The notes under the pieces were generated by a model. It was not told the origin of the DNA and searched no databases. It was given only the letters and a program-made list of their open reading frames with translations. Below are positions 1-32,350 of a stretch of DNA of 64,000 nucleotides, in pieces; within the stretch, counting starts at the first letter, position 1, and every line of letters begins with the position of its first letter. The translations under genes were made by a program, and so were the position numbers. The stretch lies in contig ML992504.1 of assembly GCA_010093995.1 (NCBI GenBank), positions 1,164,322 to 1,228,321 on the forward strand, written 5' to 3'. The stretch is from Elsinoe ampelina (lineage: Eukaryota).

Positions 1-448
1 CCCTTATATACAATTATAACCTAATAGTAATTTATAGAAGATTAACCTAATTAACATTATCTATATAACCCCTACGAGCCTATTTTATATACTTAGCTAG
101 TAAGCTATATACTACCTAGAACTAATACCTTATTATCTTATTATCTACTTTATCCGGAGGATATTCTATCCTTAGTAAGTTTACCCTTATATAAATTATA
201 AATCTTAACTAGTAAACCGGAGTACTAAAGCTATTAGGCAGAGTCTAAGACTAGAATAATTAGTTCTAGGTAGTTTAGTCTTCCTACTAACTTATAGTAC
301 AGTTGCGGATTGCCTTAATACTATTAGATTACTAGTTAATAGTAAGTGTAAGGCCGTCTAGGGCCTTAATCTCTACCTAAAGGTTGTTAATAAATTTATA
401 GTAAGTGATATTAGCCTAATAAATAATAGAGAGGCGAGTAGTAGACAT
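1..448 (-). pseudogene. Possible RIP-destroyed ORF of unknown product, running off the window edge
   Basis: ATG at 448 (MSTTRLS...); in-frame stops are TAG/TAA, explainable as RIP of CAG/CAA/TGG; no recognisable motif. Confidence 0.25.
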
Positions 449-584
449 AGTAGTAGATTTGCTTAAATTCTAGCAACTATTAGTATAAGTTATACTATAG
501 CGATGTAAAGGCATACTAGATAGTTATTTAAATATTCCTAAGGAGAGAAAGAAGTAACTTAGCTAATAATCTACTTATATCTCT

Positions 585-684
585 TAGTATAACAATAGCT
601 ATTATTTAACAATAGCTATTGTTAGTATTGTCGTTTTTTTATAATAGACAATAGCTATTATCTATATTGTCGTTCTTATAATAG
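585..684. repeat. Left TIR plus subterminal palindromic repeats (AACAATAGCTATTGTT type)
   Basis: Perfect 18-bp palindrome TAACAATAGCTATTGTTA at 607-624, degenerate copies at 591 and 647, and a duplicated TATTGTCGTT...TTATAATAG block. Confidence 0.75.
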
Positions 685-714
685 GTAACGCTAGATATAT
701 ATACCTTTTAGTTA

Positions 715-1790
715 CTATTTCTTCTTCTTCCTCTTAAACCTCTCTTTCTCGTCGTTCGATACCTCCTTCTATAATGCCTCCTTCTTACGCTTAACTCTAC
801 CCCGACCTAGTAGATCTAATCCCCTTTTAGCCTTATAAGATAACTCCTAGTAACTACGCTAGGCCCTTATACCTACGTTAGTATAAAGCCTATATCCGCT
901 ATATAACTCTTATATATCTTAACTTTAATAACAACTACAAAATCTAAGCCGAATATATCTATAATAACTATAGAGGTTCGGTACTTCGCTATAAAGCCTA
1001 CCGCACTTACGATACCTCTTACAACTTTATAGGTGTTTCTAATCTAATCTTTCTCTATAATCTAACGAATATTAGTATAATATCTTATAGACTAATAACA
1101 TCTTTAACCTAATTAACACATAGCGCGCTATTAATTGTCTTATTCTCGACAGAAGAGCAAATCCACTCTTACTCTTTACTATATACTATAATATTAAATA
1201 TAAGTAGGAGAAGTTAGATTATATCGACGATAGTGACAATAGTGTTTCTTCCGACAACTAATCTAATTAAGGTAGTATAGTCGAAGCGTCGGCAGGCTAA
1301 TAGCTTTAGATAGTTGTTAATAATATAGACTTACACTTTATAAAGACTTAATTACGTTACCTCTTTCCGTAAGTAACTAAAATTAACTATAATAACGGCG
1401 TATATAAGCTCTTAAAGTAGGAGTGTTTATATTACCTCTAGCTACACTAGTAGTTATATTACTACTCTAGGTAGCACTATTAGTACTAGCGGTAGAAGTA
1501 CCTCCCTCGTTATTCTCTTTACTATCGGTGTTATTCTAGAAAGTAACTTAACTATTATCGGGCTTAAACCTAGTAAGAAAGTCGGGAGTATAATAAGGTA
1601 GATATTAGTAATAGTATAGAGAGTAGCGTTAGTAATAAGTTAGCTAAGGTTGTAGGTACTATAGCGGGGGTAGTTATCGAGGTCAATAATAAGAGAAGTA
1701 GCGTAGAGATTAGTTATAGCTTTAGCCTTTACATTATAGTCGATCTATATAATTTCCTTATTAACGTTTTTATAAGCGGATCTAGCATAA
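715..1790 (-). pseudogene. RIPed Cys-rich ORF with basic C-terminus (separate gene or 3' extension of the transposase)
   Basis: De-RIP reading gives ...SCKR(C)RKCGRL...FCSC...GRGRVKR.KEAL.KEVSNDEKERF.RKKKK then a stop at 715-717; exon structure uncertain. Confidence 0.35.
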
Positions 1791-1971
1791 CTAACGTAGA
1801 TACAAATATAGTTATATTAAAGATACTAGCGAGTAAGGGAACGAGCTTCCTTAGGGTAGCTAACAAAGGAAGACTATTAGCATTAGTAGGTAGAATTATA
1901 TATAGTAATAGGGAAGGTACGCGTAGAAGTGCTTTAGAGTAGATATTAGTATAGATACTATAAGAGCGTTA

Positions 1972-4604
1972 TTACTCGGAGGCTATTAACTAGATATGCT
2001 TAGAATACTAGCCTCTAACCTTAGTAACGTTATACGGTAGATCTTTGTCCTTATTATACCTTTCTTCCTTATTAACCTCTTTATTGCTTAAACTATAAGT
2101 AGTAATATCTCTAAAGTTGTCGCTTATACTATCTATCCCGCTATTAGTATTATTATTAGCAGTAGTAAAATTGTCCGTCTTAGCCGATTAAATGTTTTAA
2201 AGATTATTTTCTACTAGCTTAGAGACTATAATTTATCGAATTGTCTACGGAAGTAGTCTATACCTTCGATTGCTAATAATATTCTTTACTATATTAAAAA
2301 CACATTTAACACCTACGCTAGTAATTAGTATTATAAGAATATTACGAGTAATATAAGCTAGTTGTAGAAATAAGTACTTATTTTCTTTCTACTAAGAAAG
2401 AATATTAAATTCTAATATTTCTTATATAGGCGAAGTTCTAAGGTAATTCTCCCCTTCTATCCTTATTATATAGATATTACTCTACCCTTACGAAAGTGTA
2501 TTATCTTAGCTAGATACTAGAGATATAAAGCTACTTTCTATATTTAACAAGGAAGGCTTCTTAAACTAGTAAGTAATAGACGAGGCTAGTAGAGGAGGTA
2601 GGAGAGTAGTTTAAGGAGGATAGTTATTATTATAGTAATCGAGGTAGTCGAGGAACTATTTATAGTAAAGTAAGATAAAATATAGTTCCTACGAAGTATA
2701 CTTATATATACTAAGTTTCTAAGTTAGATCTAAGATTATGTTGTAATTAAATAGGAAACCTTAACCTTTACTTATTTGCTTATAATACTTAGAAAGCTTA
2801 GTGTAACTAGCTTTCGCTATATTTTATATAACTAATAGCTAGTCTAAGTTGTCATTCTCTTTCTAAGTAGACTCGACTATATTAAGAAAGTCGAAAAGAG
2901 TATTATATATAAGCTATATATATTATACTAATAGCGTGTAAGACTAACTTAGCTAGTTAGTTATATCCTTAAAATTCTCTAGTATTTGAATAATAATCTT
3001 TAGATATACCTATTTAGTATAGCTAAGGTAAAGGCGTTTTATGTCTACGTAATTAATAGATACTATATTTTAATTAGCTAGCGCTTTGTTAGTTTAGGGC
3101 TTATATGTAATTATAATCTCTATATTAAGCTATTTGTCGATAATTAGTTAAAGTTTAATAGCTCGCTTATATATATTATACGTCGAGTTCTAATAGGTAT
3201 AAATGTCCTAAACGACTAAGAGTCGTTTATAAGGAGGTAGATACGCTTAAAGGGATTTAAAGTGTTAGTAGCGTTAAGGGGATTAGTTAATTATAATATA
3301 AATCGTATAGAGCTTTAAAATTAGTTAAAAAACTATAAGAAAGAACTATAAGAAATATAACTTACTTTATAGAGGGAATTCGGAACTAATAGAGTTATTT
3401 AAATATTATAGAGATGCTACTTCTTAAGCTTATTAGCTTTCTTATCGTCCTCGGTAGTTTCTAGCTATAGGGCTTAAATAATATCTTATACGACAAGATT
3501 AATTACGTAGGCTAGATATAGAATTACATTCTCGATAGAGAACTAGTATATACTCTTCTTCTTAAGACCTTGTTATACTTTAGATCGTAGAGTATTATTG
3601 TTACTTATATTGTCCGCTATAATAGTAAGAAGATATATATTAATCTTTTTTTCATTTAGAACCCTTAGTAGTTCTATACTAAGCGCAACTCTAGTATGCC
3701 GTCTACTAATTAGTATAAAATCTAGTAGGCACTTACGTACTTACTAGTTGTTATTAATATAGTATACCTTTATAGCTATAAAACTTAGATAGTTATTCGT
3801 AGACTAGCTATCTAGCACAATTAAAACTTTCGTCTAACTACTAAGATTAGTAAGAAGATTAGACTAAATGTCCTTATAGTGCTCTTTTAATAGCCCTAAG
3901 GCCCGCGTTTAACCTAGAATATTAGTATATAGCTAGAGGAAATATATAAATTAGAGAAAGGAGAAATTATTAACTGTTTAGAATAACTAATTACAATTAA
4001 TAAGGACCTTAATAAGCTCTTTTTTAAATTGTTCTAGAGAGAATTACAGTATATAGAATATAGTACTAGTAGCGTTCACTTTTAATTACGTTAGAGCTAT
4101 CTAAGCTACTAATTATTTATAGCTAGAAGATTTTATATTCTAGTAGCTTTAGTGTCTAAGATGTTTTATTAGGTGTTTATTACTAATTAAGTTCGTTATT
4201 AGGTGTTATAAAGCTCTACTATAGTAGAGATAATACATAAGAGGTATTCTATTAGCGAGCTTAGTACCTTTATTAAAGTTGGCCTAAATAACTCTACGGC
4301 AGGTTATAGAATTCTAGTTTAGTAGGTTTCGTGTTCTACTAACCCTTAATTCGCTACCTATTAATGTTATAGGCTACTATGTTTTTTAGGCTTATATAGC
4401 TAGCTATTCTTCGAGTAGTATATCTAGTTAGTAGAGTAGATAGCTAACAATTTTAATAGTTTTATAGAATCGAGTAGAGGATAGATTATCCTAGCAATTA
4501 ATACGGAACTCTTTAAGCTCGTAGGAGAGAGGTAGTAGTAGCGCAACAACTTCTAAGAGTATCTATAGTTAAGGATTAACTAAGTCTTTATTAAACACTA
4601 ACAT
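1972..4604 (-). pseudogene. hAT transposase (RIP-inactivated)
   Basis: De-RIPed motifs in order: KV.I.LD.WST.NHLSF.AI (catalytic D, ~3810); I.ADN.SNN (second D, ~3610); IPCLAHVINLVVQ (CxxH, ~3510); DI.T.WNST (~3190); ILSWWKEN..LFPQLA.IARDIL.IPI.SVGVE.VF (dimerisation domain and catalytic E, ~2220-2420). GT-AG intron 3365-3313; ATG at 4604; 3' end approximate. Confidence 0.92.
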
Positions 4605-4778
4605 TTTAAGAGTAGAGATATAGAATATTACTAGCTATATAACAAGGAGTAGAAGACTATAAGAATGCTCTATAAGAATCTATTAGCTACTCTTAATTTA
4701 TAGATTAAAAAATTTTTAATAGTATAGAACTAGAAAGCTACTAAAACTATAGTCTAATTTTCCTAACTTAAGGTTAAT

Positions 4779-6050
4779 CTATTTATTCTTATCTATGTCG
4801 TTCTTACTCTTACTCTCCTTATTATTATTATTACTCTTATCTATTGCCTTATTATTATCTTTATCTTAATTCTCTTTATTAGAATTGTTAAAGTCTCTAG
4901 TAGTAACTATCTCGCGGTATATTTTAGCTACTTCCTTAGTCTTATACTTGTTAGGTTCCTTATTAAGGAGGTTCTTAATCTTAGAGTCGTTCTCGACTTC
5001 TTCTTTAACCTTATTATTACTATACTTAACGTAGTAATTGTTAGATTTAAGTAAAATATTATTATTCTTGTACTTAAATTCTAGTTTAGAGGTAGGTTTA
5101 CATTTACTTCGATAGATTAGTATATAACTATAAGAAACAACTATAAGAAATAATATATACCTAATTATCTACCTATACTACTTAGAGTTTAGTAGGTGTT
5201 ATATTCTTAATAAACTTCTTAAACTTAGCTTAGTTACTATTGTTATAGTTACTAGTATTATATAGTAAGTTAACGCTATTATAGTAGATCTTATAGGTCT
5301 ATTTCTTAAGAATTCCGCTAGTGCCGAGAAGATGTTTTACTTAGCAATTCAAGAATATATTTATCTCGTTATAAAGCGCCTTCTTTATATAATTAGCAAG
5401 GAGTTACTTATAGTAAAGAAGAGTATTAGCTTTATAGATACTACTTTATTTTTAGTAGATAGATATAAACTTATTCTCTAACTATTCCCCTATATAGAAT
5501 TAGTAGATATACTATAAGAATATACTATAAGAAATATACTACTCTACTAGGTATAATAGTAAGTCTCCGCTATCTTCTTATATACTATATTAAAGGTAGC
5601 TTCTTTCTCTTTATTAGATATTACTTAGAATTCCTTAGAGTTCTTAAGTTTTGCCTTAAGTATACGTTTTATAGAGTAATTAGTATTACTAGTAGTAGTA
5701 AGAGCTTTCTCCTCTATACTAGCTTATATAGCGTAATCTCTTTACTAAATAGCTCGCTAGGTATTACTAAGCTATGCTTTCTACTATAGAATTCTAAGGG
5801 GGCAGCTATAGCGAGGAGTTCTAGTATTCTAAGAGTAATTTTTAATCTAGTATTTAATCTTATCGGCCTCGGAATTAAAACTCTATAGTCTAGTTAGTAT
5901 TTAACTATAAGAAGCATCTATAAGAATTACTTCTATTATAGCAAGAATTGCTTTCTCTTTCTCAGTTATTTCTTTAGTCTTAATTACTAGAGCATCGGTT
6001 ATCTCTTTCTCTTTACTAAAGGTTTACTAATCTATAGAATTAGTAGACAT
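4779..6050 (-). pseudogene. RIPed multi-exon ORF of unknown function with a long Asp/Glu-rich C-terminal tail
   Basis: ATG at 6050 (MSTNS...KEKE); three GT..CTAA..AG introns (~5930-5883, ~5540-5490, ~5160-5108); de-RIPed tail EDDDEAMDESDDDDEESESENDMDENE then a stop at 4779-4781. Confidence 0.6.
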
Positions 6051-6207
6051 TATAGATCGAGAATTAGTAGTAATTTGTAAGAGAAGGTAGAATATTAAGT
6101 ATAATAGGGAGCGAGATATAAGATATAAGTTTTATAAGAAGAAGATAAAGAGAGAAGAATTTAGTATTTCTTATATATATAGTAAATAGAGTAGCTAGAA
6201 ATACAAG

Positions 6208-6239
6208 TAACAATAGGTATTAATCCTATTGTTATACTA
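6208..6239. repeat. Right TIR with internal inverted repeat
   Basis: TAACAATAGG-N7-CCTATTGTTA inverted repeat overlapping the TIR CTATTGTTATACTA. Confidence 0.75.
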
Positions 6240-6426
6240 ATATAAAGTTATTAATATTGTTAATATAAAGTTGTTATAGTAGAGAATAATAATACGAAAT
6301 TTACATTCTATATACTATTATAAATTCCTTAATAAGGCTTAATATCTCGCTCTTAGTATTTTCGCCTTACTCTTCTTTACCTTTATAAACAAATTTTAAT
6401 AATCAATTTAATAAATTTACGTAGCT

Positions 6427-7008
6427 ATAGCTCGTAAGAAGCAAGTAATACCTCTAAAAAGAGCAAAGCTAAGGAAGTAAGGCACTAAGAAAACTACTAC
6501 TAAAAAGCCTACTATAGGTAGTTACGTAACAAAATTTAGACTAGTATTAACTAGACAAATTCGCTAGGCGAAGAGCTATAGGTTTAAGCTAGGTAGTTAG
6601 TTTCTTATAGTAAATTCTTATAGTCTTATATCTAATATAGTATAGCTATTACTCTCCGAGAGATTCGTTACTACTAGAAGATAACTAAACTTCTTATATA
6701 TAAGCTTCTCTTCTTCTACGTTATTCGCGACATTATATAAAATGTTAAGTTAACGCTTATAAGTAGAGATTTACGCTTTACGCTAGATGCTATTAAGTAT
6801 CTCTAGGAAGCGAGTAAGGTAATACTAGTAGAATATTTCGAAGGTATATTAACTATGTATTTAGAATATATAATACCTTATACTAATAACTATAGTAGAC
6901 TATAATCTTAACGCTATCTATGCTAAGCGTTGTACTATTATATAGAAAGACTCTTAGCTTACTAGGAAATATTACAATAAGTACTACCTACTTACTTTCT
7001 CTAATTAG
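6427..7008 (+). pseudogene. Histone H3-like gene (H3L), RIP-inactivated, two introns
   Basis: De-RIPed: MARKKQ...KPRKQ...HRFKPG | TVALREIR.YQK.TELLI.KLPF..V.RDI...DLRFT.DAI..LQEASE..LVEYFE | D.NLNAIHAKRCTI.QKDSQLARK; introns 6596-6645 and 6844-6898; start codon reads ATA (ATG after RIP). Confidence 0.93.
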
Positions 7009-7119
7009 TAAGACCTCTCCTCTATAATACTATAAGAATAGACTATAAGAAATAAGTAGGTGTATTTTTATATAGACTAGACTATTAAATTTCCTTTCTA
7101 TAGACTTATTATAATACTA

Positions 7120-7385
7120 AAGTATAGTATAGTAACTGTAGTCGCCTTAAAGCCTAACTAAGGCGTAGTACTATAACGTAGTATAATACTAGGATTTAAC
7201 TCTAGTGCTAATTTGGTATAGTGCTATTATAGTATAGTATAGCGCTATTATAGTACAGTGCTATTCTTGCTTAACTACGGTGTAGTGCTAGTGCTAGTAT
7301 AGCTTAGCGCAGTACTAGTACTAGTACTAATATAGTAGAGTACAGAGCTAGTACTATTTAGTTTAGCACTAGGTGCCAACCTACT
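7120..7385. repeat. Array of degenerate palindromic octamers (YAGYRCTR), ending in a possible TIR GTGCCAACCTA
   Basis: About a dozen TAGTGCTA/TAGTACTA/TAGCGCTA/CAGTGCTA/TAGCACTA units; copia coding sequence begins right after. No partner TIR found in the window. Confidence 0.55.
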
Positions 7386-9718
7386 AAGAACAGCTCTATA
7401 CTAGTACTAGAGTCGGCCTTTAGCCGCCCTAACTCCGCCCTAACGGTTATACTACTCTATTATACTAGATTAGTTACTACCTCTATTAGACTAATTAGAT
7501 AAGGCTATTCTAGATCTAAACCCGGCTTAGATCTAGGAATCTTTACTAAATAAATAGTTCTTTAATACTCTAGCCTTACTACTATCTATAGTAGTATAGC
7601 TATCTCCTCTACTAATAGGAGGAGATAAAGCTAAAGGAGATAAGATAGAAGTTTAGACTAAAGGGGTAGTTAAAGCTTAGCCTAAGTAACCCCCTTAAAG
7701 AATTACTATAAGGTTAGCTAACCTTCTTCCTAAGTATATTCTTACTATAAGAAGAATAAGAAAGCTAAGAAGATAAGTATATATTACTACTCTTATATAG
7801 CCTAATAAAGTACCTAGATATTATTAAGCTTTTAATACTTATCTATTAATGTAGCTAACTTAGTATAAGCTAGAATTAAGAGACAATCTCTCTCTACTAC
7901 TAGCTAATATTAAAGAGCTTAAGGCTTATTCTTATAAGAAGTAATTTTAAGAAGCTATAAAGGCTAAATTGCTTACTTTATACTCTAAACATATATAGAC
8001 TATTATACTAGCTACTTAAGCAAGTAGTAAGCCTATTCCTTTAATATAGGTATTTACCTATAAGGTTAATAATAAAGGAGAAGTTATAAAGTATAAAGTA
8101 AAGGTTTATATAAGAGGTAATCTATAATTAATAGAGTTAGAGACTTATATAGTAACTCTAGTAGCTAAGATCTTTAGAATGCTTATAGCTCTACTTACTT
8201 ATAAAGATATAAAGGCTATCTAGATAGATGTTATTAATGCCTATATTAATAGCTCTATTAATAAGATTATCTACTATACTATTCCTTCTAGATTTAAGTT
8301 AGTTATAGAGGAGCTTATAAAGGACTACTCTAGTATTACTCTATTAGATGTAATTCTGTTACTTAATAAGGCACTATATAGCCTAAAGTAAGTCCTAGCT
8401 CTCTAGTATACTAAATTTACTACTACTCTAAAGAGTATTAGATTTACTTAAGCCCCTAAGGCTCTATACCTCTAGATAATACTTAAAGTAATAATCTTCT
8501 TCTTTATAGATAACATTACTATTATATATCTTAAGAAGCATAAGGAGAAAGCTAATACTATTATTATAGCTCTCTATACTAAATATAAGATAAAGGTACT
8601 TAGAGATCTAAGCTAGTTTCTAGCTATCTAAGTTATAAGAGATAGACTAATAAAGAGACTCTAGCTTAGTTAAGCCTAATATATATAATAGATATATAGC
8701 AAGTTTATTATAGAGCTAACAAGGCTAGTATTAATACTACTACTAATAGAGATACTCTAGCCTTATAAGAGCTAAGTATTACTATAAGAGATCTACCTAT
8801 ATTAGTAGAAGGTTAAATCTATTAACTTTGTAGTAGTTATTACTAGGCCTAATATTACCTTTGCTACTTCTAGATTATTAAAGCATTTAACAAATCCATT
8901 ACTAACTTACTAGAGGCTAGTAAATAAAGTAATTTAGTATCTCTATAAAACTAGAGATATAGCTCTTACCTTTAATAGCTTAATACTACCTCTAATCTTC
9001 TAAGCCTTATTAGATACTAGCTTTAGTAGTTACTCTTTAAGGAAGAGCCTTTAAGGCTATCTATTTAAGATGTTCTAAGGCTTAATTAACTAGAAGGCTA
9101 CTAAGTAGCTAATAGTTATAACCTTAAGTATAGAAGCAAAATTACTTACTCTTATAGAAACTACTAAGTAAGCTATATAGTAGAGGAGGCTAATAGCCTC
9201 TATCTATCCCCTTAAGCATATTAGTATTTAGTATAACAATTAGTAAACAATTAGCCTTATTACTACTCTAATTAAGAAGCTTAATATATATCTTTATTAT
9301 ATTAATATCTATTATTACTAGCTAAGACAAGAGATTAATCTAGCTAGAGATCTATCTAGCTCTATCTTAGTAATATAGACACTATTAGTAGACACCTTAG
9401 CTAATAGATTAACTAAGTTATTACTACCTAGAAGATATAAGGCCTTCATATAATAGCTATCCCTCAAGTTAGTAGTCTACTAACTAGCTATAATAGCCTT
9501 ACAGCTATTTAGTAAAGAGGTATATTAACCAAGATATAAGCTAGAGCACTAAGAAGGACCCTAATTTAGTTTATCCCCTAGTAGAACTAAACACTTATCT
9601 ACTACTCTACTAATTTATAATTAAATTAGATAGTTATTATCTTAATCTGTTACTATTAAGGAGTTCTTTTGATTTAGCTATCTTTTAGTATACTAGGTTA
9701 AGTATTTATGTAGTTACA
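7386..9718 (+). mobile_element. Ty1/copia LTR retrotransposon, 5'-truncated and RIPed (linker + RT + RNase H + 3' LTR)
   Basis: De-RIPed: WVFTYK....GEVIKYK.KV..RG.L (~8050); Q.DVINAYINS (~8220); NKALY.LKQ.PALWY (~8365); FFF.DDI (~8500); DASF...LFKMF.G.IDWKATKQ..V.T.STEAELL (~9010-9150); HIDI..HWLRQE; ADGLTK (~9400). No gag/protease/integrase. Confidence 0.92.
9523..9718 (+). repeat. Putative 3' LTR of the copia element
   Basis: Follows a purine tract AGTAAAGAGG (PPT-like, 9511-9520); begins TATTAAC (TGTTAAC before RIP) and ends GTTACA at the AT/GC boundary. Confidence 0.55.
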
Positions 9719-9973
9719 ATCTACCTCATTTTGGTGGTTTAGGCAGTAATCAATCCTTTTTCCTCCCCCACACAAGTCAACACGAACGCGCAGTCACGTG
9801 TATGCTTCACTGTAATTCTTGGCTTCGCTCCCCATCGACCTCCACCTGCCTCGCAACACGGTCCTCATGGAGCCAAGTAGATCTACGGCAATGCCATTAC
9901 AACATCGCCAATAACTCGAAGCGAGTCTCCATCCTCGCTGCAGCGCATCGTGTACGACCAAGAAGCAGCAGCA

Positions 9974-11284
9974 ATGCCTCCGCGAAAGCGCCGGACTGCG
10001 GCCACGACTTCTTCACCACCTCCTTCACACCCTTCAACAGCTCCTTCACCTGATCCTTCCAACTCAAACCCAGCAGATGCTCTTTCCACTACCTCGGGGG
10101 ATCCAGCAGTGGATCTTCTTTCCGATCCATGGACCGACGCCGAGGAGACAGCTCTATATCGAGCATTGATCAGACACAAGCCAACAGGGTTGCACAAGCA
10201 CTTTCGTATGCTGGACATCTACCTTGGACTGCTCAGCCAAGGATATGTACGCGAGAATCCTGCAGGCTTGGGTTTAGGTCTTGAAGAGAAGGGGAGGGGC
10301 AAAGGAACCAAGGTGCTGCTTGAGACCAAGGATGGAGAGGGGGACATTGCCATGGCCGATGCGGGAGCCGGAGATGGCAATGGCGATACACAGGAGGGTA
10401 TAGAAGCCAGGGAAAGCGATGACGGCCGACACACCTCCATTCGCGGGATATGGCGCAAGCTCCACTCACTGTACGACCTCGAAGCGCTGGATGAACGAGA
10501 ACTAGAGGGCGACTACGAACGAGCCTTTGGCACCACTTCCTCAGCCGCCTCATCCTCATCTGAAGACGAGACCACCACAAATCGCCGCGCCAAAAGATCC
10601 CGTAAAGCCTCCTCGCCCTCCAACTCCCCCGCCCCAATCGGGAGAGAATTCCACCTCCCCACCTCCCCCTCTCCCTCTCACGACAGCCCCTCCTTCACCC
10701 ACCTCATCTGGGCGAAACGCTTCCCCTCCCCATCCCCCTCCCTGCCCGGCTCAGGCCCACCCAGCCCCTCCACCACCAACCCCAAACGCTCCAGCACCGC
10801 CCGCCCCAAACTCGAACGCCGAGACAGCAGCCCTGCGCAAATGCCCGAACTTCTCCCCAGCCGACACGAACCCCCAATCAAGTTCCAGCCGAGCTTCACC
10901 ATCCCGTCCGACGGCGAGGGCGACGAAGGCGGGACACCAGTGCGCACGACGGAGAAAGAGAAGACGACGAAACGAGGCAGGGGCCGGCCGAGTAAGTCCT
11001 CTTTACCCGCGGCGGTTGCGCAGGGGAAGGGGAGGGAGAGTAATATCACGCGAAGGAGTAGTCGGGTGGCGACGAATACGAACGAGAGCGAAGAGGAGGA
11101 GGAAGGGGAGGAAGAAGGGAGCGGTGAGGAGGAGGGAGGGGAGGATGAGGATGAGGAAGAGGAGAGTAGTAGTGAGGAGGAGGAGGAGGAGCAGGATAGT
11201 CCGCAGAAAAAGACGAGGGGAGGAGGAAGGGGGCGAGGGCGGGGAAGAGGTGGTGGAAGGAGAGGAGGCAGGGGGAAGAAGTGA
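9974..11284 (+). CDS. EAF7: NuA4/TINTIN subunit Eaf7 (CT20 family)
   Basis: WTDAEETALYRALIRHKPTGLHKHFRMLDI and IWRKLHSLYDLEALDERE motifs; acidic/RGG tail. Confidence 0.85.
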   Translation: MPPRKRRTAATTSSPPPSHPSTAPSPDPSNSNPADALSTTSGDPAVDLLSDPWTDAEETALYRALIRHKPTGLHKHFRMLDIYLGLLSQGYVRENPAGLGLGLEEKGRGKGTKVLLETKDGEGDIAMADAGAGDGNGDTQEGIEARESDDGRHTSIRGIWRKLHSLYDLEALDERELEGDYERAFGTTSSAASSSSEDETTTNRRAKRSRKASSPSNSPAPIGREFHLPTSPSPSHDSPSFTHLIWAKRFPSPSPSLPGSGPPSPSTTNPKRSSTARPKLERRDSSPAQMPELLPSRHEPPIKFQPSFTIPSDGEGDEGGTPVRTTEKEKTTKRGRGRPSKSSLPAAVAQGKGRESNITRRSSRVATNTNESEEEEEGEEEGSGEEEGGEDEDEEEESSSEEEEEEQDSPQKKTRGGGRGRGRGRGGGRRGGRGKK

Positions 11285-30976: not shown

Positions 30977-32350
30977 TCAGCCTTTCTCTGACTTGACCTC
31001 GACGTCAGTCGGTGGTGTCTCCTCCTTCTTGACCTCACTGTCCGATACAGAACTAATACTGAGGTTGCTGGACCTTTTGGACACGGTTCGTGCTGGTGCT
31101 GCCAGCTCTGATCCTCGTGCGCCATCAGGGGTCGAAGGCCTCGAAGAATCACTAGGTATCCGCGGCGAAGGACGTCCGTCTACACCTGAAAGTGCACCAG
31201 GAGCCTTCTTCCGCCTAGCCGTACTTTGACTGCTCGTCCGACGAGTGACCTCAGATCCCCTGCGATTTCGTCCTTCTGGTTCGGGAGTAGGCGTCGAACT
31301 ACGAGAGCTCGATCGAGAGTTACCGTCTGATAGAAGACCATCCTTGCGCTTCTCCCTTCTGATCTGAGTGCTACTCGGCTTTTCGCGGACGACCTTGGCT
31401 TTTTGATCTTGGACGACTCGCGATTTTCCAACTAGATTCTGCCAGCCCCTCCAGCCTGTCCACCAGAGTAGGCCTCCCTCCTTCTTGGCAATCTCCCTGT
31501 CTCTGATCTTGATCATCTTCCTTAAGCCTGACCTTCGCTCGTTCTCCTTCTCCCAGTACGAAGTCCTGTACGTGTCCCACTCTTCGCGGAAGTCCGGGCT
31601 GAAAGGCTTGGGCAGCAATAGCAGTTTGATCGTGTCTCCCCCTGATGCAACGTCTTCTTCGATCCAGAGGTCGTTTTTGAGTCCTTCCAGCCGTTGAAGC
31701 TTCTGCTTGTCCCCTGGCGTACGCTCAATGTCGCGCGGCAGATACTCATACCGCATACCTTTCGTCCCTGCCCAGTACCCGAAAGGTCCCAGTAGGCCAA
31801 GATATCCGACTACCTCTTTCCACCATGATCCTCGTATTACCACAACTTTTAGATTGAATCCTCGAAGGCCCCTATTGGTGATACCAACCCAGCGCCTTGG
31901 CCATCTCACACCTCGATCCCAAAGTCCTGTTCCCCATACTAGCCCCCAAGTGACCATACCTCCGACAAAGCCCATCTTTTCCATGACATCCACCACCCAG
32001 TAGACACTTCCGCCAGTCCCTTGGCCATCTTCGCGGGGTCGTAGAAAGAGCAAATACGTAAAGGTCAAGGTCCAGACTAGTAGAGCCCCCAGCAAGAGAA
32101 TGTGCAGTCGCAAGCGAGCGCGTAGGGAGAGGTACTGGGCGCGCAATGATGACTCAAGGATTAGAAGGTTGAGGTATATTTGAGGAGGTGATGACGGAAG
32201 GTGCGACACTGGATCAAGGGGAGGAGGCTGGGGAGCTGTCACTGATGTTTGAGAGGTCGATGACTTTCGCGCAGCTGTCGCAACTTGTTCGGGAGATACA
32301 TTTGGTGGAGGAGCCCCTTTGACGATGCGGTCGAGAGTGTTGGACGACAT
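30977..32350 (-). CDS. SPO7: Nem1-Spo7 phosphatase regulatory subunit
   Basis: SSPPQIYLNLLILESSLRAQY, two TM segments, NRGLRGFN, FREEWDTYRTSYWEKENERR. Confidence 0.9.
   Translation of the reverse strand: MSSNTLDRIVKGAPPPNVSPEQVATAARKSSTSQTSVTAPQPPPLDPVSHLPSSPPQIYLNLLILESSLRAQYLSLRARLRLHILLLGALLVWTLTFTYLLFLRPREDGQGTGGSVYWVVDVMEKMGFVGGMVTWGLVWGTGLWDRGVRWPRRWVGITNRGLRGFNLKVVVIRGSWWKEVVGYLGLLGPFGYWAGTKGMRYEYLPRDIERTPGDKQKLQRLEGLKNDLWIEEDVASGGDTIKLLLLPKPFSPDFREEWDTYRTSYWEKENERRSGLRKMIKIRDREIAKKEGGLLWWTGWRGWQNLVGKSRVVQDQKAKVVREKPSSTQIRREKRKDGLLSDGNSRSSSRSSTPTPEPEGRNRRGSEVTRRTSSQSTARRKKAPGALSGVDGRPSPRIPSDSSRPSTPDGARGSELAAPARTVSKRSSNLSISSVSDSEVKKEETPPTDVEVKSEKG

Follow-up and report, generated by a model that had tools for sequence, protein, structure and literature searches.

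A RIP-inactivated histone H3-like gene in a high-copy repeat of Elsinoe ampelina, near hAT transposase remains, and the divergence of its N-terminal tail

The window analysed here, a 64,000-nucleotide stretch of Elsinoe ampelina DNA, begins with an AT-rich block in which positions 6427-7008 of the plus strand hold a three-exon histone H3-like (H3L) gene interrupted by seven in-frame TAA or TAG stops. Its coding sequence of 474 nt (158 codons) contains 83 TpA, 7 CpA and 5 TpG dinucleotides, and the copy is a dead gene, inactivated by RIP. The gene model was built from reading frames, splice signals and the fit to relatives, and its parts are given here with the features that surround them.

1..9750 (right border approximate), no strand: AT-rich, RIP-mutated repeat block, recognised by GC content and RIP indices
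2221..2457, minus strand: C-terminal dimerisation domain of a hAT transposase, RIP-mutated (PF05699, E 2.2e-8 and 3.8e-8)
3332..7753, no strand: cluster of the 10-mer ACTATAAGAA, 13 exact copies, mostly in pairs 13 bp apart (families D1, I7)
3600..3914 (approximate), minus strand: probable catalytic core of the same hAT transposase, D-x-x-S-T...A-D-N-x-S-N-N recognised by eye
6427..6595, plus strand: H3L exon 1, ATA start and 56-residue tail, ending in phase 1 (translation, frame test, codon sets)
6596..6645, plus strand: H3L intron 1, 50 nt, GTTAGT...TATAG, deduced from the frame shift between the exons, splice sites predicted
6646..6843, plus strand: H3L exon 2, alpha-N to alpha-2 of the histone fold (Pfam PF00125, E 2e-9)
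6844..6898, plus strand: H3L intron 2, 55 nt, GTATAT...AGTAG, splice sites predicted
6899..7008, plus strand: H3L exon 3, alpha-3 and C-terminal extension (PF00125, E 0.024), stop TAG at 7006-7008, then TAA
8023..8709, plus strand: Copia-type reverse transcriptase, RIP-mutated, flanking the hAT/H3L region (RVT_2, E 1.5e-17)

Translation of positions 6427-6594 with TAA and TAG read as Q gives IARKKQVIPLKRAKLRKQGTKKTTTKKPTIGSYVTKFRLVLTRQIRQAKSYRFKLG, and thereby reproduces the tail string that an earlier note on this DNA had reported for exon 1. In the frame used, the 55 codons are interrupted twice, by the TAA at 6478 and by the TAG at 6565, as against nine and eight stops in the other two forward frames, and the ATA start codon is a RIP-type change from ATG. 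The coordinate at which that note had ended the tail, 6595, coincides with the predicted exon end, where a codon is divided into A and CT by intron 1, as can be read directly in the DNA. An additional small intron within exon 1 was considered and rejected, as its 37 nt would be too short and the frame would break. In exon 2, loop L1 is five residues longer than in canonical H3 (65 query residues align to 60 in the library search), and removal of intron 2 as modelled yields F-E-D-(C/Y)-N-L-N-A-I, equal in length to the corresponding stretch of the relatives introduced below, two of which, P0173 and P0174, also share the C-terminal extension K-D-S-x-L-x-R-K-Y-Y... of exon 3. The histone fold and H3-type helices are present according to the Pfam matches of exons 2 and 3, and the H3 identity of the gene is, on these matches, beyond chance. 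Prior to RIP, the gene would have had the same three exons and encoded a protein of about 158 residues with an H3-type fold close to that of canonical H3, a loop L1 with five additional residues, an aromatic C-terminal extension, and a tail about 12 residues above normal length. As a separate observation, three H3-family predictions from metagenomes (P0037, P0045 and P0059) read through short introns after K-P-G and after F-x-E-G; because these are the window's two intron places, the intron sites seem to be common to fungal H3-family genes.

The composition of the surrounding block is unlike that of the remaining window. GC content is 0.27-0.33 over positions 1-9000 and 0.53 at 9801-9900, and about 0.5-0.6 in the rest of the window; the TpA/ApT ratio is 1.69-2.28 over 1-9000 as against 0.56 over 20001-60000, and the (CpA+TpG)/(ApC+GpT) ratio is 0.19-0.25 as against 1.28 in that same gene-rich part. 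The high first index and the low second one mean that the block at 1-9000 is heavily RIP-mutated, and together with the Pfam histone matches they bear out the earlier claim of an H3-like gene within a RIP-mutated repeat. Between 9700 and 11300, GC content jumps from 0.22-0.43 to 0.53-0.60 within about 200 bases, and the switch is followed by a GC-rich open reading frame (9974-11284) with imperfect CAGCCCCTCCTTCACC-like repeats. Farther to the right lie a Spo7-like open reading frame on the minus strand (30977-32350; 451 of 457 residues identical to Elsinoe batatas KAG8627306.1) and, also in the gene-rich part, CLASP, sulfate permease, Avl9 and molybdopterin oxidoreductase (Oxidored_molyb and Mo-co_dimer) genes.

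The hAT remains lie about 4 kb from H3L, on the opposite strand. When shorter pieces of the hAT region were searched, Pfam recognised the dimerisation domain alone; the catalytic core at 3600..3914 is a probable assignment made from its motifs, no Pfam model reaching threshold there, and stop density per frame gave no outline of a transposase or of a central open reading frame. A search for terminal inverted repeats with target-site duplications, by local alignment and a transition-tolerant scan, returned only 10 weak candidates, at chance level in RIP-mutated DNA. Positions 1-9900 yielded a single histone match. The 13 exact ACTATAAGAA copies compare with 0.07 expected and are confined to the listed interval; two inverted copies sit within H3L intron 1 (6602 and 6615, minus strand) and one pair just past the H3L stop (7029 and 7042), and such copies could be candidate transposase-binding or intron-linked repeats. 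Around the Copia-type reverse transcriptase, neither an integrase nor a gag domain was recognised on either side. The RVT_2 match itself was missed in one translation of 3300 residues and detected in a piece of 700 residues, and since long read-through translations can mask weak domains, other domains within 1-9750 may be hidden.

The repeat nature of the H3L stretch was evaluated in two DNA sequencing runs from one sample, in which 0.47 and 0.44 of the sampled words of the stretch were present. In these runs, 304 and 399 short contig pieces, which are not a copy number, matched 1001 bases at a likeness of at least 80%, and were distributed over the likeness classes of at least 99%, 95-99%, 90-95% and below 90% as 74, 111, 101 and 18 in the first run and 128, 124, 131 and 16 in the second. 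Nearly all variable places are transitions (23 of 25 and 21 of 22), in contigs that drop rare variants. The stretch is a multi-copy, high-copy repeat. At a share of at least 5%, exon 1 varies at a single place (6462) and without effect on the protein, so that the tail is, at the depth reached, the same in all copies sampled. Among the pieces with at least 80% likeness, none was compatible with a gene free of mutations, although such a copy would probably score below that cut-off. Two further runs, presumed to be of RNA, gave no piece on the stretch, a result with no bearing on expression. These data also bear on whether H3L is the decayed remnant of a host H3 variant that has nothing to do with the hAT relic beside it, as might be suspected because no element ends were found and because of the distance and opposite orientation of the transposase. 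We consider this very improbable, as the H3L stretch itself occurs in hundreds of diverged pieces and as the same pair of genes is described, in the passages available of the Pyrenophora report, as one element (PMC3538342).

Relatives of the gene were not easily found. Word-index searches with exon 1 and with exon 2, which covered longer proteins only, gave no match, because RIP has left too few exact words. An exhaustive library search with exon 2 retrieved 1077 proteins at E <=0.001 (150 listed), mostly canonical or fused H3; the 58 of 157 proteins without the canonical loop motif included P0117 of Pyrenochaeta, a partial histone fold which has unusual residues in common with the window. A profile of P0117 and window exons 2 and 3 then found 241 proteins at E <=0.001 among 250 candidates, in a search that covered lengths of 19-151 residues; the published H3L of Pyrenophora tritici-repentis was not among the matches listed, and 14 of the 120 listed were taken further, including these three:

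P0171: partial H3-like protein of Pyrenochaeta, profile search
P0173: "Histone H3" of Pyrenophora teres f. teres, 149 aa, profile search
P0174: H3-like protein, 143 aa, profile search

The metagenome proteins P0045, P0037 and P0059 were rejected as relatives, being CenH3-like or other variants with unrelated tails. A metagenome scan based on the H3L alignment gave 585 candidate stretches, of which 565 encoded a relative; none of the 80 loci kept had an H3L motif, and all 80 are of the canonical type, 62-66% identical. An AlphaFold model of P0174 from a four-row alignment (mean pLDDT 52.1, pTM 0.26) was too poor to use. P0117 and P0173 both read A-I-Y-A-K-R at the conserved H3 His, as does the window (TAT); given that CAT to TAT is a RIP-type change, the gene models behind these two proteins may come from lightly RIP-mutated copies.

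A maximum-likelihood tree of 27 rows (5 H3L, 10 H3 and 12 CenH3; P0040 and P0242 were dropped because their fold start was not found by pattern) places the window, P0117, P0171, P0173 and P0174 on one side of a branch with a support of 100/99. In this tree, H3L thus belongs to a distinct clade with three Pleosporales proteins and P0174, apart from canonical H3 and CenH3, with a window branch that is very long (1.96) and odd in composition. Residues that RIP cannot create are common to the window and its four relatives, namely the F of R-F-K-x-G, the Y two places before E-D, the motifs E-D-C-N-(L/I)-N-A-I and K-D-S, and the start of the extension, (K/R)-(R/K)-Y-Y; in the last three, the residues concerned are the N of N-L-N-A-I, the S, and the Y-Y after L-x-R-K. 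At the 51 fold columns invariant in H3L, the window is RIP-compatible in 45, and in one more when the first codon of exon 2 is corrected. Because fold similarity, when RIP is taken into account, is about equal for canonical fungal H3 (69/89) and for H3L members (67/90 and 69/93), the assignment to H3L rests on these shared derived residues and on the tree. All members also differ from canonical H3 at a place in alpha-2 and at C110, which is N here; we take these places to be involved in chaperone specification and in the H3-H3' interface, respectively. Descent from the histone of the centromere could in principle explain the long, divergent tail and the longer L1, which fungal CenH3 rows also have with five additional residues, and the best non-stringent RIP-aware match of the tail was indeed a CenH3 (P0048, score 30 versus 28 for canonical H3). 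However, the 12 CenH3 rows are separated from the H3L clade by the branch mentioned above, the window has R-F and not R-W, with a TTT codon that RIP cannot derive from TGG, and the 60 best matches of P0174 among solved structures all bear the name H3. A CenH3 origin is rejected on the basis of the tree, and we give it next to no credence.

To analyse the tail, C>T and G>A changes were reversed in each codon and all amino acids that could result were listed, once for the favoured TpA context and once for any context. Residue 9, numbered without the Met, is CTA (6454-6456), which can be reversed only to L or P, so the earlier claim that RIP could not have derived it from a Lys codon is correct. 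K-S-(H)-R is preceded by GCG (6568-6570), for which only Ala is possible, and the CCT codon after the K27-like Lys can only have encoded Pro. With neither set of contexts could A-R-K-S be recovered from any four consecutive tail codons. The window tail therefore lacks the hallmark of canonical H3, which is A-R-K-S at K9 and K27 together with K36, and where it departs from canonical H3 at the K9, S28 and K36 places, it did so before RIP: because codon reversal can restore neither A-R-K-S nor K36, their absence, as the earlier note had described it, is real and older than RIP. If less favoured RIP contexts are allowed, A-R-K-P could have been the origin of codons 25-28 (within TTTKKP), and A-R-K-(T/A) that of codons 20-23. 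The same note held that the K4 context is kept, which is true of K4 itself, found in ARKKQ; T3, however, is replaced by Lys, and the context is for this reason not intact either. The tail is a low-complexity stretch rich in Lys, Arg, Thr and Ala, and MAFFT could not place exon 1 in the alignments; RIP-aware alignments of the tail to canonical H3, to P0174 and to P0173 gave three different registers, so that reading K9 as Leu, and likewise the K27 match, depends on the register chosen. P-L-K of the window may correspond to P-R-K of P0174.

Two complete tails (P0174 and P0173) and one partial tail of the relatives were compared with that of the window, with P0123 as the canonical reference. The tail of P0174 keeps K4, R8-K9 (PRKT), K14, K18 and A-R-K27 (AARKAP), has T for S10 and lacks S28. 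That of P0173, MARIRPPKLVTGGKGPAKNLAAKANRKPATKSARKTLPKVPSKRYKFKAG, carries R in place of K4 and L in place of K9, keeps K14, K18, K23 and N-R-K27, and contains SARKT further on. Counting back from the Gly that precedes the fold, the K36 place is occupied by A in the window, by S and R in P0173 and P0174, respectively, and by K in the two partial proteins P0171 and P0117; K37 is kept in all five members. Exact ARKS, S10 and S28 were found in no H3L member examined. The lysines of H3L tails are very unevenly retained, with K27, which carries a repressive mark, kept in both complete tails.

H3K9me3 with HP1, and H3K27me3, silence fungal repeats, and the earlier note had proposed on this ground that H3L could be an "unsilenceable" histone that, with K4 kept and the contexts of K9, K27 and K36 gone, would bear neither H3K9me3 nor H3K27me3 and would shield the transposon from heterochromatin. 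The irrecoverable ARKS and the Ala at K36 in the window tail agree with such a role, as do the absence of exact ARKS and of S10 and S28 from the relatives and the A, S or R that takes the K36 place in three of five members. The comparison among homologues that the note had suggested, by scoring K4, K9, K27 and K36, did return no exact ARKS; it also showed, however, that P0174 retains K4, K9 and K27, and that P0173, in which K4 is lost, retains K27 and has the SARKT just mentioned. For the refutation that the note had put forward, retention of ARKS motifs by intact homologues, the result is mixed. ARKT-type motifs can be methylated. Furthermore, RIP has destroyed the window copy, the remaining pieces do not differ from it in their tail codons, and a histone made in trans would have no known way to load on its own element alone. 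Lys-to-Met histone changes block methyltransferases in trans, and a Leu after Pro at position 9 is unlike that type. An oncohistone-like block of methyltransferases was likewise considered and set aside, the context around the substituted residue being lost when the sequence is read directly. We regard the unsilenceable histone as distinctly unlikely, and the comparison of the tails, which differ strongly among relatives, does not support it: because there is no common pattern of lysine loss, and because K27 is kept in both complete tails, the tail does not appear to be a shared anti-silencing design.

P0174 and P0173 are identical at 22 of 44 positions in the tail and at 66 of 95 in the fold and C-terminus, a difference that points to fast or relaxed evolution of the tail. 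With moderate confidence, we lean towards the explanation that the locus holds a RIP-killed H3L gene of a high-copy repeat, near hAT remains, and that ARKS and K36 were lost because the tail evolves fast and under little constraint. When intact, the H3L protein would have formed a pair with H4 and been built into nucleosomes as a variant H3, and its tail would have evolved under weak constraint in a transposon-linked lineage without being shaped to evade H3K9 or H3K27 methylation. As the introns are present, unlike in the Pseudocercospora copies, the gene would have been captured as genomic DNA.

Against this explanation, the fold and the C-terminal extension are conserved from Elsinoe to the Pleosporales, which argues, as far as these sequences can tell, that H3L was kept by selection, and the changes in the tail could even be part of a selected H3L function. 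It is possible, if rather unlikely in our opinion, that selection has acted on H3L as a transposon gene, for a benefit that comes from the fold, the longer L1 or the C-terminal extension and not from the loss of tail lysines, with the tail free to vary; it might act through unstable or distinct nucleosomes, through another chaperone, or by aiding excision or integration. The fold and the unusual extension that the window shares with the Pleosporales proteins would be expected in that case, as would the residues at the chaperone place and the H3-H3' interface, non-canonical in all members; H3L ESTs are also reported for Pyrenophora tritici-repentis in the available passages of PMC3538342. Horizontal transfer, or independent capture of a similar host variant, could however yield the same shared features. 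A bolder view, to which we attach little probability, combines selection with counter-defence: H3L would be an old, selected hAT cargo common to Pleosporales and Myriangiales; its fold and extension would be conserved, its tail would shed the contexts of K9, S10, S28 and K36, and its expression from many copies would dilute or block heterochromatin marks over element-rich DNA, and perhaps also block the heterochromatin-dependent branch of RIP. The only comparison made, that of the tails, lends no support to a counter-defence reading. Our preferred explanation remains that of a weakly constrained tail.

Transposons seldom carry histone genes, and the question of what such genes do has been open since 2013. 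As it stands, the locus adds one dead copy to a kind that is already known, since transposon-borne H3L has been published for Pyrenophora, Parastagonospora and Mycosphaerellaceae. The host lineage appears to be new, which adds a further order of Dothideomycetes to the range of H3L, and so does the evidence, derived from sequence comparison, for one H3L lineage across two orders. Such a single lineage, with its conserved fold and shared C-terminal extension, suggests that the cargo was either kept over a long time or spread horizontally, and not that it was captured by accident on separate occasions. Our analysis also provides a first residue-by-residue view of H3L tails. If an intact H3L entered chromatin and altered H3K9 or H3K27 methylation, it would represent a new kind of transposon counter-defence. 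A literature search on Elsinoe, hAT, histone H3 and RIP found no report, and one on functional studies of hAT-borne H3L found none; a 2025 preprint on hAT elements of Pyrenophora tritici-repentis does not mention histones.

The closest known system is that of Pyrenophora tritici-repentis. Manning et al. 2013 (PMC3538342), in the passages at hand, described a 5.6-kb element with H3L, a hAT transposase and a central open reading frame, present in 26 near-identical copies, supported by ESTs and interpreted as a hAT transduplicating element; H3L was found to be neither H3 nor CenH3 and to have insertions in its tail, and drift was suggested by the authors. The word "lysine" does not occur in the main text of that article. 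The two systems are alike in having an H3-like gene and a hAT transposase within about 5-6 kb, in many copies, with a product that has insertions in its tail and is neither H3 nor CenH3, and P0173, from the sister species P. teres, falls in the clade of the window. They differ in that all the evidence in the window comes from RIP-killed copies and in that Elsinoe belongs to Myriangiales and Pyrenophora to Pleosporales, the likeness being drawn from the published description.

Dhillon et al. 2019 (PMC6710886) reported 9.5-kb hAT elements with H3-like sequences in Pseudocercospora fijiensis and five other Mycosphaerellaceae. From the lack of introns in these sequences, the authors concluded that a transcript had been captured; neither "tail" nor "lysine" is used in their text. 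Like H3L in the window, these sequences occur in hundreds of copies in AT-rich blocks, are all RIP-inactivated and are linked to hAT. Unlike them, which are intron-less, mostly cut to the third exon, and present once or twice per element, the window copy has two introns, is of full length, and provides the single histone match found at 1-9900. The repeat R25 of Parastagonospora nodorum, whose deRIP consensus matches a Pyrenophora "histone H3" according to the passages available of Hane and Oliver 2010 (PMC3017866), is likewise a RIP-degraded H3-like repeat; it differs in that the likeness is a weak BLAST match only (E 2e-4), those passages giving neither a gene model nor an analysis of the tail. 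Compared finally with canonical fungal H3, the window gene has the same alpha-N helix and A-K-R-x-T-I motif and the 69 RIP-compatible fold positions out of 89 noted above, and differs in a tail that is 12 residues longer and without ARKS, S10, S28 and K36, in an L1 that is five residues longer, and in the addition of a C-terminal extension.
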